The translations under genes and the position numbers were made by a program. A DNA stretch of 63,346 nucleotides from positions 1-63,346 of the forward strand of contig JAGOOP010000008.1 of assembly GCA_017992455.1 (NCBI GenBank), given 5' to 3'. How positions within the stretch are numbered: position 1 is the first letter of the stretch; each line of letters opens with the position of its first letter. The notes beneath the pieces were generated by a model, which worked only from the letters and a program-made list of their open reading frames with translations, was not told where the DNA came from and made no database searches. The stretch is from Candidatus Omnitrophota bacterium (GTDB lineage Bacteria; Omnitrophota; Gorgyraeia; Gygaellales; Profunditerraquicolaceae). Positions 42,865-51,245 of the stretch are shown here, one piece after another.

Positions 42865-44480
42865 AAGAAAGACCCAAAGTCAATCAATGGGTTGAGAGGT
42901 AACAATAAGTAAACAGAGCCTTTTTCCAAATTTTCCTATATATATCGGAGAGTTTGATCCTGGCTCAGAGTGAACGCTGGCGGCGTGGATTAGGCATGCA
43001 AGTCGAGCGATGCTATTTGTTGAGAGGTTGAAGCCGCAAGGCAGATGCCAATTGACTTTTAGCAGAGCGGCAAACGGGTGAGGAATACGTGAGTAATCTA
43101 CCTCTATGTCGAGAATAACCTCGCGAAAGTGAGGATAATGCTTGATGTGGACAATGCCCCATAAGGGGTGTTATCTAAAGGTACCCGCAAGGATATCGCA
43201 TAGAGATGAGCTCATGCTCTATCAGCTAGTTGGTAGGGTAACGGCCTACCAAGGCGAAGACGGATAGGTGGCCTGAGAGGGTGGTCACCCACAAGGGGAC
43301 TGAGACACTGCCCCTACTCCTACGGGAGGCTGCAGTCGAGAATATTTAGCAATGGACGAAAGTCTGACTATGCGACGCCGCGTGAGGGATGAAGGTTTTC
43401 GGATCGTAAACCTCTTTCGATAGGGAAGAAACTCCCTGTTCGTAAGGACAGGTGCTGACGGTACCTAGAGAAGAAGCCATGGCCAACTCCGTGCCAGCAG
43501 CCGCGGTAATACGGGGATGGCGAGCGTTACTCGGATTTACTGGGTGTAAAGGGCAGGTAGGCGGTTTTGCAAGTTGAAGGTTAAATCCTCTGACTCAATC
43601 AGAGAGCTGCCTTCAAAACTACATTACTTGAGGATTGGAGAGGAGAGCGGAATTCCAGGTGTAAGGGTGAAATCTGTAGATATCTGGAGGAACACCCGTG
43701 GCGAAAGCGGCTCTCTGGACAATATCTGACGCTGAACTGCGAAAGCTAGGGGAGCAAACAGGATTAGATACCCTGGTAGTCCTAGCCGTAAACGATGAGC
43801 ACTAGGTGTCGGGGGTTAAACCCTCGGCGCCGTAAGCAAACGTGTTAAGTGCTCCACCTGAAGACTACGACCGCAAGGTTAAAACTCAAAGGAATTGACG
43901 GGGGCCCGCACAAGCGGTGGAACATGTGGTTCAATTCGATGCTACGCGAAGAACCTCACCAAGGCTTGACATGCAGGAAGTATGAAGCTGAAAGGTGGAA
44001 GACCTGTCAAGTCAGGAGCCTGCACAGGTGCTACATGACTGTCGTCAGCTCGTGTCGTGAGATGTTGGGTTAAGTCCCGCAACGAGCGTAACCCCTGTTT
44101 CTAGTTGCCACTTTCAAAGCCGCAAGGCCGAGAAAAGCACTCTAGAGAGACTGCTCGGGATAACCGAGAGGAAGGTGGGGATGACGTCAAGTCCGTATGG
44201 CCTTTATGCCTTGGGCTACACACGTGTTACAATGGCTACTACAAAGCGTCGCCAACCCGCGAGGGGGAGCTAATCGCAAAAAAGTAGCCTCAGTTCAGAT
44301 CGGAGTCTGCAACCCGACTCCGTGAAGCCGGAATCGCTAGTAATGGCGGATCAGCTACGCCGCCGTGAATACGTTCCCGGGCCTTGTACACACCGCCCGT
44401 CAAGCGATGGGAGCCGGGGGTACCTAAAGTACTCTAGCAATAGAGTCCTAAGGTAAAACTGGTGACTGGCGCTAAGTCGT

Positions 44481-45233
44481 GAAGTAAAGTTTGCGACCTT
44501 CCGATGTAAATCGGAATGAGAAATTCGGCTGTATGCTGGAACATCCGTAGTATCTCAAGATACCGAAAGGTGAAAATTCTTGAGTGCGGACAATCAGCAG
44601 GGAAGTCGTAATTGACCCCTCAGAGACTACACGCCGACCTCTTAAGGAGCAAAGCTTGGATAAAATAACCGTTGCTTATCTTCAAGGAACCTTGGGAGAT
44701 TCAACGTATAGCAAATTGCATAAGACGTATAGAATATCTCAGAATAATAGAGAATGGTTGCTTATGCTTAAAAATTTGCTTCAGTCGTTGGAGATCAAAG
44801 GATGGATATATAAAGAAGGCAAATCCAGGGACGTATATGTTCTTGAGACTACCTTCCAATCTTTATCCGGAGATTTTGATCCCTGTTCTCTCGAGACTAC
44901 CGAAGAAAAGCAAGCATATATACGCGGTTATTTTGATGCTGAAGGAGGCACTTCCCGAGTTAATACGGTCAGATTTTATCTGCAGTTCGCAGAGAAAAAT
45001 AAGACACGAATCGAGAAGGTCCGGAATCTCCTGAAAGAATTAGGGATCAATTGCGGGAAAATTCATAATCCCAGCAAGGTAACCGATCCTGATTATTGGA
45101 GATTTTATGTCAGTGCTGATTCCTACGATAAATTCGTTAAAGAAATCGGATCCTGGCATCCTAGAAAGCAGAAGCTTTTATCCAAAAGAGTGAAGATATA
45201 GTCCACGCTCTGTGGCGACACAGGGAGTACGTG
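44481..45233 (+). mobile_element. Group I intron in 16S rRNA (between E. coli-equivalent U1498 and A1499), 753 nt
   Basis: The flanks AAGTCGT|..|AACAAGGTAGCC restore the universal AAGTCGTAACAAGGTA. The 5' exon ends in T and the intron ends in G. IGS GCGAC (44493-44497) pairs with GUCGU via a G.U pair. Core motifs CAGAGACTACACG and GAAGATATAGTCC are present. Confidence 0.85.
44656..45201 (+). CDS. Double-motif LAGLIDADG homing endonuclease encoded in the 16S intron
   Basis: The motifs are 'VAYLQGTLGDST' and 'AYIRGYFDAEGG'. A likely TTG start at 44656 follows an AAGGAG SD (the listed ORF starts at GTG 44584). The TAG stop lies inside the GATATAGTC core motif. Confidence 0.75.
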   Translation: MDKITVAYLQGTLGDSTYSKLHKTYRISQNNREWLLMLKNLLQSLEIKGWIYKEGKSRDVYVLETTFQSLSGDFDPCSLETTEEKQAYIRGYFDAEGGTSRVNTVRFYLQFAEKNKTRIEKVRNLLKELGINCGKIHNPSKVTDPDYWRFYVSADSYDKFVKEIGSWHPRKQKLLSKRVKI

Positions 45234-45442
45234 AACAAGGTAGCCGTACCGGAAGGTGCGGCTGGATCACCTCCTTTCTAATAATTTCGATACCTTGGAG
45301 ATTATTAGTTTGACTTGGAAGGCGTGGTTTGCGCAGGCAAGCCAACATGCGACAAGTTAAATCAGGTAAGCCCTTCAACAAGGCTTACCGGCTTGGCTAT
45401 TTAAAAAATTTTGCGTTGCTATGGGTAAGTTATATCAAAAAC

Positions 45443-45516
45443 GGGCCCATAGCTCAGATGGTTAGAGCACAGCCCTGATAAGACTGGGGTCAGTGGTTCG
45501 AGTCCACTTGGGCCCA
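45443..45516 (+). tRNA. tRNA-Ile (anticodon GAU)
   Basis: Manual cloverleaf: acceptor GGGCCCA/TGGGCCC, anticodon loop CTGATAA, T-loop TTCGAGT. It lies in the 16S-23S spacer. No CCA is encoded. Confidence 0.9.
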
Positions 45517-45561
45517 TTTATTTTATAATGGCCCGTGGTGGCATGATACCCTAGGTTCTCT

Positions 45562-45634
45562 GGGGCTGTAGCTCAGCTGGGAGAGCACCTGCTTTGCAAG
45601 CAGGGGGTCAGCGGTTCAATCCCGCTCAGCTCCA
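45562..45634 (+). tRNA. tRNA-Ala (anticodon UGC)
   Basis: Acceptor GGGGCTG/CAGCTCC including G3:U70, anticodon loop TTTGCAA, T-loop TTCAATC. Confidence 0.9.
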
Positions 45635-45818
45635 CATTAATTTTTCCGGACAACGGAAAAATTAATGTGCACTTGACGAGCGTAAAATGACGCGCCAAGC
45701 GTCATAGCGAGGAAAGTGCTCCAGTCATACACGTACGCAAAATTTCAAGCATAATACATTACGAGTACGCAAGGTCATCGCGCGGGAATCTTCTCCTGCG
45801 CGGGCTTGCGATACATTA

Positions 45819-49723: not shown

Positions 49724-49827
49724 CGATGTCGGCTCATCCTATCCTGGGGCTGGATAAGGTCCCAAGGGTCCGGCTGTTCGCCGGTTAAAAGGGTACGCGA
49801 GCTGGGTTCAGAACGTCGTGAGACAGT

Positions 49828-50571
49828 AAACTGACCGTTGCTGTCTTTAAATCTGGCTATTTGCTGGAAAATCTGGGTATCTCATATTACTAATTGACGA
49901 TATAGTCTCTATATGATACTATGGCGTCGGAAGTGAAAATATATGAGTGCAGATCACCAGCAGGAAAGGCCAAGCGGGATAAAAGAACACTATATCAGTG
50001 GCTTTGTCGATGGAGAAGGCTGCTTCTCGATTACAATTCAGAGAAGCAATAATGTGAGGCTTGGGATTCAAGTAATTCCCGAGTTTCATGTGTCTCAACA
50101 TCAACGAAGAGATGAGGTTCTTTGTGCGATTAAGGAACGATTGGGATGTGGCTATATTAAACCCAATAATCCTAATAATCCAAAAGATCTTACCTCGGTT
50201 TATGTTGTGCGCAATTTAGCCGATATTCGAGACAAAGTTGTGCCATTCTTTAAGAAATATCCTTTGATATCGTCGAAGCAGCAGGACTTTGAGAAGTTTA
50301 ACGAAGTTGTGGCTGCGATGAACAAAGGCGAACACCTGAATAAGAGTGGACTTGCAAAGATATTGAAACTGGCATTCTCGATGAATGACAGTGGAAAATA
50401 TCGCAAGCTGAAAATAGTAGATATATTATCCTATTTGGAATCCTCAGAGACTATACGCCAGAAATCTTCCGCAAGGAGGATCTAAGATATAGTCCGAACT
50501 GCATAGCGATATGCAGAGATTAGCAGAAATGCTTAATCCTTCTACGGTACAATGTAGATGTAACATAATTG
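49828..50571 (+). mobile_element. Group I intron, 23S site about L2604, 744 nt
   Basis: GTGAGACAGT|..|TCGGTCTCTATCTG restores GUGAGACAGUUCGGUC. IGS GCTGTC (49840-49845) pairs with GACAGU. The intron ends in G. It shares AAATCTGGCTAT(A/T)TGCTGGAAAATC with intron 1. Confidence 0.85.
49943..50485 (+). CDS. Single-motif LAGLIDADG homing endonuclease in 23S intron 4 (paralogue of 47998-48543)
   Basis: 'HYISGFVDGEGCF', 'VVPFFKKYPLISSK' and the shared C-terminal 'ESSETIRQ' (read through the P7 core) are present. The TAA stop lies in the J8/7 motif. Confidence 0.8.
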   Translation: MSADHQQERPSGIKEHYISGFVDGEGCFSITIQRSNNVRLGIQVIPEFHVSQHQRRDEVLCAIKERLGCGYIKPNNPNNPKDLTSVYVVRNLADIRDKVVPFFKKYPLISSKQQDFEKFNEVVAAMNKGEHLNKSGLAKILKLAFSMNDSGKYRKLKIVDILSYLESSETIRQKSSARRI

Positions 50572-50954
50572 TCGGTCTCTATCTGATGTGGGCGTTAGGA
50601 TATTTGAAGGGGAGTTCTCCACAGTACGAGAGGACCTGGAGAAGCAGACCTCTGGTGTTCCGGTTGTCCTGCCAAGGGCAAAGGCCGGGTAGCCATGTTC
50701 GTAAGGGATAAGCGCTGAAAGCATCTAAGTGCCAAGCCCACCCCAAGATTAGATATCCCTGGGCCGCAAGGCCCTGAAGGCACCCGGAAGACCACCGGGT
50801 TGATAGGCGAGGTGTGTAAGATCCGTAAGGATTTCAGCTAACTCGTACTAATTGCCAACCGGCTTGACTTTTTTTATAACTCTCAAGGTTATAATGTAGT
50901 TTGACCATAATAATGCAGATGTTGAGTCTTATGTAATATTAATATGACATAAGA

Positions 50955-51054
50955 CGAAATGGTTGCGCATAGATATGCGCAACCATACCAGATCATTGAT
51001 ATATATGTTTGGCGAAATGGTTGTGTGTAGATACACACAACCATACCAGATCAT
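50955..51054 (+). repeat. Two 42-nt direct repeats in the 23S-5S spacer, each a hairpin with compensatory stem changes
   Basis: Copy 1 (50955-50996) is CGAAATGGTTGCGCATAGATATGCGCAACCATACCAGATCAT. Copy 2 (51013-51054) is CGAAATGGTTGTGTGTAGATACACACAACCATACCAGATCAT. Confidence 0.75.
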
Positions 51055-51131
51055 AGCAAAAATTTGGCCCTTTTTCTTTCTAGAAAAAGGACCAAAATTT
51101 TGCAATCGTTACTTAATTATAGCAAAATTTT

Positions 51132-51245
51132 GGAGTGCTCATACCGCGAGGGTCACACCCGTTCCCATTCCGAATACGGTAGTTAAGCCTCGCAGGGCCG
51201 ATGGTAGTGTTTTCGTAAGGATATGCTAGAGTAGGTCGGCGCTCC
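51132..51245 (+). rRNA. rrf: 5S rRNA
   Basis: The terminal helix GGAGTGC/GCGCTCC, CCCGTTCCCATTCCGAA, GCCGATGGTAGTG and AGAGTAGG are present. Confidence 0.85.

Follow-up and report, generated by a model that had tools for sequence, protein, structure and literature searches.

The DNA analysed here (the window) is a stretch of 63,346 nucleotides, contig JAGOOP010000008.1 from the Candidatus Omnitrophota assembly GCA_017992455.1. On its forward strand it contains a whole ribosomal RNA (rrn) operon, for which an Rfam scan reports the genes for 16S rRNA, tRNA-Ile, tRNA-Ala, 23S rRNA and 5S rRNA. The original prediction had proposed that this operon is interrupted by five group I introns, one in the 16S gene and four in the 23S gene. 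We consider it very likely that this is the case, and the assignment is upheld by matches to the covariance model, by P1 and P10 pairings, by covariation of the ribozyme core, by LAGLIDADG endonuclease genes and by recurrence of the operon in other assemblies. The introns are termed S1498, L1917, L1931, L2500 and L2604 after the last base of the 5′ exon, which is U1498 of 16S rRNA and U1917, U1931, U2500 and U2604 of 23S rRNA.

Insertion sites were mapped with the E. coli genes rrsH and rrlH as references. When 14 nt of the 5′ exon and 14 nt of the 3′ exon were joined in silico, all five 28-nt junctions were found in E. coli 16S or 23S rRNA with 0-4 mismatches, and the boundaries are unambiguous. 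The positions and lengths that had been predicted for the five insertions (Table 1) proved to be exact, and so did the restored conserved rRNA strings and the rule that each intron is preceded by a T and terminated by a G (omega-G). With the five insertions removed, both genes are collinear end to end with their E. coli counterparts, and the global alignment contains no other insertion of more than 47 nt in either gene. All insertion sites lie in conserved sequence of the functional core (h44/45, H69, H71 and the peptidyl-transferase centre). The insertions have a G+C content of 39.5-44.8%, compared to ca. 52% for the rRNA exons and 57.5% for the flanking DNA. Introns L1917 and L1931 are separated by a micro-exon of only 14 nt, which contains both the P10 partner of the first (GGUCC) and the P1 partner of the second (AGGU).

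For all five insertions a hit was obtained with RF00028, the Rfam model of group I introns, which has a gathering score of 50 bits. Two of them exceed this score, with alignments that cover P1-P9 (S1498, 54.4 bits, E 7e-12; L1931, 50.3 bits, E 1e-10), while three remain below it (L2604, 40.1 bits, E 1.4e-7; L2500, 39.6 bits, E 1.9e-7; L1917, 29.2 bits, E 2.4e-4). The lower scores likely result from the inability of RF00028 to bridge open reading frames (ORFs) within P6, or the additional P7.1/P7.2 hairpins. An ORF-less allele of L1917, found at the related locus L090, scores 68.1 bits, and thus the shortfall of L1917 stems from the ORF within the fold; the L1931 orthologue of locus L088 scores 58.6 bits. 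For L2500 and for L1917 and L2604 with their ORFs, the Rfam alignments extend over the 3′ half only, with the 5′ half forced into ORF sequence, and were not used for structure. Among the families returned when the window was scanned with Rfam, none was a group II intron.

The pairings expected of a group I intron could be read from the sequence of every element. The internal guide sequence pairs with the end of the 5′ exon to form P1 in S1498 (GCGAC/GUCGU), L1917 (GUAGUU/AACUAU), L1931 (GCCU/AGGU), L2500 (GGGUG/CACCU) and L2604 (GCUGUC/GACAGU), and all five P1 helices end in a U.G pair. The four guide sequences that had been named before are all present, and the fifth, GCCU of L1931, had been overlooked; it adjoins the P10 pairing of that intron (CGCU/AGCG). 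The other P10 pairings are GUU/AAC (S1498), GGACC/GGUCC (L1917), CAUC/GAUG (L2500) and GACCG/CGGUC (L2604). In a helix-by-helix reading, P3, P4, P6, P7, P8 and P9 are complementary in all introns, including the P3/P7 pseudoknot.

Covariation was analysed for a set of 13 diverged S1498, L1917, ORF-bearing L1931 and L2604 introns from the window and related loci, with the cores cut in register and an explicit pseudoknotted structure comprising P3, P4, P6, P7 and P9. In these helices 97.6% of the cells are paired, and 18 of the 29 pairs show compensatory changes on both sides. None of 500 shuffled controls reached any of the observed covariation measures, and pairing falls to 31-44% (maximum 43.5%) when the partner strand is slid by 1-3 columns. 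An earlier attempt with RNAalifold on four L1917 introns recovered P4, P5, P5a, P6, P7, P8 and P9 but misdrew P3, because P3 and P7 form a pseudoknot, and was replaced. Compared to its homologues at loci L091, L093 and L095, S1498 has compensatory changes in P2, P3, P5, P8 and P9.

One detail of the original prediction had to be revised. Core strings resembling P7 had been described as common to all five introns, and this assignment is wrong in the fourth, L2500. In this intron, GAGACTATCACACGCC is not P7 but comprises the 3′ half of an additional hairpin, P7.2 (GAUAGUU/AACUAUC), and P3′. The 5′ strand of P7 is ACGACTGA (ca. 49577-49584). It directly follows P6, in the same register as its counterparts in the other introns; the register of P6′ and P7 is shown by a repeat family (TGACCCC-GTA-ACGACT).

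Three of the introns code for LAGLIDADG endonucleases, all of which are above the Pfam threshold and have retained the acidic residue of the motif (GYFDAEGG, GFADGEG, GFVDGEG). The S1498 endonuclease starts with a TTG codon 6 nt past AAGGAG and has its TAG stop codon within P7′. It has two motifs (LQGTLGD and GYFDAEGG) and 1082 homologues in public data, for which 181 aa is the usual length, while no match was found among PDB sequences. The L1917 endonuclease has a single motif (LAGFADGEG) and its gene is preceded by GGAGG. This ORF begins in P6 and extends across P7, P3′, P8 and P9 to a stop codon (48541-48543) in the downstream 14-nt micro-exon, and thus is complete only on unspliced RNA. 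The L2604 endonuclease also has one motif (ISGFVDGEG); its ORF begins in P5′ and passes through P4′, P6, P7, P3′ and P8. In both the L1917 and the L2604 ORF, the segment J6/7-P7-P3′ encodes the peptide ESSETIRQ. The closest relatives of these two proteins in the PDB are the domains of I-PanMI, I-SmaMI and I-OnuI and the single-domain homodimeric proteins 5gkk and 3e54. The dN/dS ratio is 0.04 for the L1917 endonuclease (versus locus L088) and 0.08-0.12 for that of L2604. The three LAGLIDADG genes are intact and, as judged from dN/dS values of 0.04-0.12, under purifying selection. The orthologous ORFs of other species are intact as well, and the proteins are therefore taken to be functional. 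These ratios, and the fact that the L1917 site is unoccupied in one sibling strain, are consistent with endonuclease activity but are no proof of it.

The remaining two introns lack an ORF. L1931 resembles S1498 in P4-P7, with 80% identity to the S1498 core (seen as a separate repeat family). L2500 has the extra P7.1/P7.2 hairpins known from IA-type introns and a P6 loop of ca. 160 nt. Comparison with its orthologues at loci L011, L012 and L088 reveals compensatory base changes in P7.2, P8 and P9, which argues that the ORF-less intron is under selection for folding. A homologous ribozyme, with the same P4-P6, P7 and P7.1/P7.2, is found in an intron that is absent from the window and is inserted only 11 nt downstream, after U2511 of 23S rRNA. 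This L2511 intron has 826 nt (locus L090, reverse complement, 7714-8539; loci L005/L006, 1-743) and encodes an intact LAGLIDADG_2 gene of 193 aa. In each member of the L2500/L2511 family P3, P4, P8 and P9 are complementary, and covariation occurs in P9 (CCACCG/CGGUGG, CCACGC/GCGUGG, CCAUCC/GGAUGG, CCACUG/CAGUGG) and in P7.2 (GAUAGUU/AACUAUC versus GAUAGCA/UGCUAUC). The P6 loop of L2500 contains a stretch of ca. 19 nt with similarity to the LAGLIDADG-motif codons of the L2511 gene, which may tentatively be regarded as a short ORF remnant. We are cautious here because this similarity is the sole basis and nothing significant was found when the L2500 introns were searched with the L2511 endonuclease by tblastn (best E 0.45).

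Table 1. Features of the intron-containing rrn operon, with positions in the window.
Feature	Position	Strand	Evidence and remarks
16S processing stem, 16 bp	42849-42864 / 45390-45405		inverted-repeat search
16S rRNA exon 1 (E. coli 1-1498)	42942..44480	+	RF00177 1393 bits; alignment to E. coli rrsH
S1498 group I intron, 753 nt	44481..45233	+	RF00028; endonuclease ORF within P8 loop
S1498 LAGLIDADG_3 endonuclease gene, 181 aa	44656..45201	+	PF14528 63.5 bits, 2.3e-17
16S rRNA exon 2 (E. coli 1499-1542)	45234..45278	+	E. coli alignment
tRNA-Ile(GAU), spacer	45443-45516	+	ARAGORN; RF00005
tRNA-Ala(UGC), spacer	45562-45635	+	ARAGORN; RF00005
23S processing stem, 28 bp	45828-45855 / 50895-50922		inverted-repeat search
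23S rRNA exon 1 (E. coli 1-1917)	45883..47856	+	RF02541; E. coli alignment
L1917 group I intron, 676 nt	47857..48532	+	RF00028; covariation; orthologues at L034 and L088
L1917 LAGLIDADG_1 endonuclease gene, 181 aa	47998..48543	+	PF00961 74.9 bits, 1e-20
23S rRNA micro-exon, 14 nt (E. coli 1918-1931)	48533..48546	+	junction mapping
L1931 group I intron, ORF-less, 194 nt	48547..48740	+	RF00028 50.3 bits; orthologue at L088
23S rRNA exon 3 (E. coli 1932-2500)	48741..49310	+	junction mapping
L2500 group I intron, 413 nt	49311..49723	+	RF00028; orthologues at L011, L012 and L088
23S rRNA exon 4 (E. coli 2501-2604)	49724..49827	+	junction mapping
L2604 group I intron, 744 nt	49828..50571	+	RF00028; covariation; orthologues at L029 and L088
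L2604 LAGLIDADG_1 endonuclease gene, 180 aa	49943..50485	+	PF00961 93.2 bits, 2.1e-26
23S rRNA exon 5 (E. coli 2605-2904)	50572..50872	+	junction mapping; E. coli alignment
5S rRNA	51131..51247	+	RF00001 93 bits
Terminator hairpin 3′ of 5S, perfect, 26 bp	51253-51305		inverted-repeat search

The operon is not confined to one assembly. It belongs to an uncultured bacterium of anaerobic digesters, whose affiliation with Candidatus Omnitrophota is indicated by the conserved linkage of the rrn operon to a T2SSF gene. A search with this gene returned 80 loci, nearly all of them labelled Candidatus Omnitrophota, and in these loci the 16S gene starts ca. 400-600 nt 3′ of the T2SSF gene. This synteny is phylum-wide. 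An endonuclease identical to that of L2604 is encoded on 8 contigs, all with the same context (three NCBI metagenome-assembled genomes (MAGs), three ENA assemblies and two JGI metagenomes), and a ninth contig, also from JGI, was found by DNA pattern. The operon thus occurs in at least nine independent assemblies (GCA_029573915.1, GCA_029558055.1, GCA_040364335.1, three from ENA and three from JGI). At one of these loci, L001, the whole operon shares 99.9% identity with that of the window and carries the same five introns.

The operon would be transcribed as one precursor in which each intron folds into a ribozyme core of P3-P9. The intron-containing 16S and 23S precursors are each bracketed by their own processing stem. 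With the internal guide sequence paired to the last 4-6 exon bases and ending in a U.G pair, the intron would be excised by two guanosine-initiated transesterifications, and rejoining of the exons would restore the sequences of the decoding centre, of H69-H71 and of the peptidyl-transferase centre, which are required for ribosome function. We infer that all five introns are spliced and their exons ligated in this manner in the host. The introns are probably selfish mobile elements; the three LAGLIDADG endonucleases would promote homing by cleaving alleles that lack the intron, and the proteins may also assist splicing. Splicing can reasonably be taken to be obligatory if this is the only rrn copy.

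Several points weigh against this interpretation. Three of the five introns are under the Rfam gathering threshold. The register used in the covariation analysis was set by the author from anchor motifs and therefore leans towards the structure under test. Splicing and exon ligation in the host are predicted from the sequence; endonuclease activity is likewise putative, and splicing may be autonomous or helped by a protein. A single rrn copy is presumed; every recovered copy has the same genomic context.

Three other explanations were considered. According to the first, the operon is not the working copy, with an intron-free operon located elsewhere, or some of the introns are wholly protein-dependent or decaying. 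In its favour, the host may have more than one rrn copy, L2500 no longer has an ORF, the RF00028 scores of three introns do not reach the gathering threshold, and there is a precedent in Thermotoga, where according to work cited in PMC3984707 an rRNA intron requires its own LAGLIDADG protein as maturase at high temperature. Against it speak the intact, highly conserved exons and the location at the T2SSF-linked rrn site, which is conserved across Omnitrophota. All eight contigs with the L2604 endonuclease share this context, and the ORF-less L2500 has retained compensatory base changes between species in P7.2, P8 and P9. We regard this explanation as improbable.

A second explanation, which we consider to be quite improbable, is that the insertions are intervening sequences (IVSs), which are excised by RNase III without religation and leave a fragmented yet functional rRNA. 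IVSs are known from the tips of variable helices. The five insertions are found in the conserved single-stranded or functional core (h44/45, H69, H71, peptidyl-transferase centre) and are not plain stem-loops at the tip of a variable helix that lack a ribozyme core. Fragmentation at these sites would cut the decoding and the peptidyl-transferase centre. All five insertions match RF00028 and obey the rules for the preceding U, omega-G, P1 and P10, and the ribozyme core covaries. In favour of IVSs it can be said that they are the commonest insertion of at least 100 bp in non-CPR 23S genes (CPR, Candidate Phyla Radiation), with 18.5% of RefSeq 23S genes affected (PMC11270868), and that ligation in the host is predicted from sequence; however, the orthologous L1917 intron of another member of the phylum is spliced in vivo (PMC13153191; see below).

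The third explanation, an assembly chimera in which foreign intron-bearing rRNA fragments have been stitched into the contig, has a negligible probability: rRNA regions of metagenomes are notorious for misassembly and the sibling contigs L004-L008 break at intron/exon borders, but these breaks coincide with true strain polymorphisms, and recurrence of the shared introns in at least nine independently assembled contigs from three archives, in which unique genes flank the operon at either end, together with the near-identity of L001, rules it out, so that this objection, too, which had been anticipated in the original prediction, falls away. An operon with five group I introns remains the best explanation.

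The set of introns differs between closely related strains, although their exons are 97.8-100% identical. The window and L001 carry S1498, an ORF-bearing L1917 (676 nt), an ORF-less L1931 (194 nt), L2500 and L2604, and L2511 is absent. In L002 and L003 the L1917 site is empty and L1931 is ORF-bearing (699 nt), while S1498, L2500 and L2604 are present and L2511 is again absent. In L090 (and in L005/L006, which are partial) L1917 is ORF-less (201 nt), L1931 is ORF-bearing (728 nt), the L2500 site is empty and an ORF-bearing L2511 (826 nt) is found, with S1498 and L2604 being present. The 699-nt L1931 intron of L002/L003 is of a different lineage than the 194-nt intron of the window, and it is 64% identical to the L1931 intron of L090. 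L2500 and L2511 were never seen together in the loci examined. Orthologous introns from other species are 74-84% identical to those of the window, and distant Omnitrophota have 0, 1 or 4 of the window's introns. Locus L088 (16S 92% identical) has L1917, L1931, L2500 and L2604 but neither S1498 nor L2511; only L2500 is present in L011 and L012, only L2604 in L029 and only L1917 in L034, and none of the six introns is found in L022, L023, L039 and L044. For L022 an apparent L1931 insertion of 542 nt proved to be a false junction match, as BLAST shows its 23S gene to be collinear. Near-identical strains differ in which four or five introns they carry, and the intron population is in active turnover.

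Related introns were also encountered elsewhere. Homologues of S1498 were confirmed in a Chloroflexi MAG, in another Omnitrophica MAG and in an unassigned contig. In the MAG labelled Chloroflexi (GCA_016865935.1, locus L091) the S1498 intron is located at 7853-8582, with an endonuclease that is 58% identical, and an insertion of ca. 739 nt occupies the L1917 site of the 23S gene (ca. 11483-12220). These two insertions suggest that the intron families in question have spread between phyla. A further Omnitrophota MAG (QZKA01000004.1, locus L065) has an ORF-less group I intron of ca. 232 nt in its 16S gene (12186-12429, RF00028 45.8 bits), which most likely sits after U516, the boundary being ambiguous due to a GCCAGC repeat.

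One rRNA intron has been described before in this phylum, in Ca. Velamenicoccus archaeovorus, where a group I intron is inserted at L1917 and RNA-seq showed ca. 1 unspliced per 20,000 mature 23S rRNA molecules (Kizina, Lonsing & Harder 2026, PMC13153191). The intron probes and helper oligonucleotides of that study match the L1917 endonuclease gene of the window collinearly with 1-5 mismatches, and thus the two L1917 introns are orthologous. They share phylum, site and an intron-encoded LAGLIDADG gene, but their sequences are not identical, and the window has five introns, one of them in the 16S gene, compared to the single rRNA intron described for Ca. V. archaeovorus. Our literature search found no paper on multi-intron rRNA operons, or on any 16S intron, in Omnitrophota. 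The operon is an unusually intron-rich example of a well-known class of elements, of which one had already been described in the phylum.

The original prediction had considered five introns in one operon as exceptional. Insertions are scarce in 16S genes of non-CPR bacteria in RefSeq (1.1%, and 18.5% for 23S genes), but the claim was overstated, as in the CPR insertions occur in 48% of the 16S and 82% of the 23S genes, with up to 16 per gene (PMC11270868). CPR LAGLIDADG genes are concentrated at 16S position 1498 and at 23S positions 1917, 1931, 1952, 2593, 2604 and 2657, and four of the window's five sites are shared with the CPR, although the host belongs to Omnitrophota. Features in common with the CPR (Patescibacteria) are group I introns with single-domain LAGLIDADG_1 genes at 1917, 1931 and 2604, LAGLIDADG_2 or LAGLIDADG_3 genes at 16S 1498, the occurrence of versions with and without an ORF at one site, and many insertions per gene (Brown et al. 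2015; Tsurumaki et al. 2024, PMC11270868). The text of the latter paper does not mention L2500 or L2511, which may or may not correspond to its sites 23IS9-11. Literature searches by the site names L2500, L2511 and L2604 gave nothing relevant.

Architectural parallels are found in cyanobacteria. Synechococcus sp. C9 has three 23S introns with the ORF running through the core (Haugen et al. 2007, PMC1995217). In this strain and in S. lividus C1, the L1917 and L1931 sites, separated by 14 nt, are both occupied, with single-motif LAGLIDADG ORFs extending from a peripheral loop through P7, P3 and P8, and there is an intron with P7.1/P7.2 in domain V, as is L2500. They differ from the window in having at most three introns, all in the 23S gene and all with ORFs, and the third site is L2593 rather than L2500 or L2604. 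Introns of Thermotoga (L1917 and L1931), Simkania (L1931) and Coxiella (L1951) are likewise ca. 650-770 nt long, encode LAGLIDADG proteins and occupy the H69-H71 hot spot (PMC1995217), and Thiomargarita nelsonii has three 23S introns and multiple 16S introns (PMC4853749). All of these belong to other phyla, and none combines S1498 with four 23S sites.

Our understanding of how group I introns work is not changed by this operon. It shows that a heavy load of rRNA introns, which has been thought to be typical of the CPR, also occurs in Omnitrophota. Omnitrophota, like the CPR, are ultrasmall, host-dependent bacteria, and the operon bears on the question whether small, host-associated bacteria with a single rrn operon are especially permissive to rRNA introns. 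The strain series, with an empty site, ORF-bearing and ORF-less versions and a variant at a neighbouring site, represents a snapshot of the cycle of endonuclease gain, decay and loss. The endonucleases, for which natural targets are available, are candidates for biochemical assay. S1498 interrupts the binding site of the universal primer 1492R, and therefore such organisms are under-counted in amplicon surveys.

A broader view is possible but somewhat doubtful, namely that the rrn operon of Omnitrophota is a second hot spot, outside of the CPR, of a cross-phylum pool of homing introns in rRNA, with fast turnover and with L2500 and L2511 as mutually exclusive alleles. If so, L2500 and L2511 would represent a natural re-targeting of a group I ribozyme to a neighbouring site. 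Alternatively, the decayed L2500 intron might shield its site against a related endonuclease.

A few observations concern the surroundings of the operon. Directly upstream (36764-42489) there are two tandem T2SSE/MshEN ATPase genes, a gene for a response regulator with an HD domain and the T2SSF gene. The linkage between T2SSF and rrn is kept across dozens of Omnitrophota MAGs, many of whose contigs end within the 16S gene. Downstream, the G+C content is 0.49 from 51500 to the end of the window, compared to 0.575 upstream of the operon. The window diverges from all sibling assemblies at 55366/55367, and the remaining ca. 8 kb (55367-63346) are of low G+C. The divergent region carries a large serine recombinase (55224-57059, reverse strand) and a ParB-N/DNA-methylase gene (60239-61543), and it looks like a mobile element inserted at the 3′ end of a large gene (51436-55377), which codes for 1374-1401 aa in the sibling assemblies. 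In the spacer between the 23S and 5S genes (50955-51054), a hairpin-forming unit of 42 nt, CGAAATGGTTGCGCATAGATATGCGCAACCATACCAGATCAT, occurs in two tandem copies which are 86% identical.

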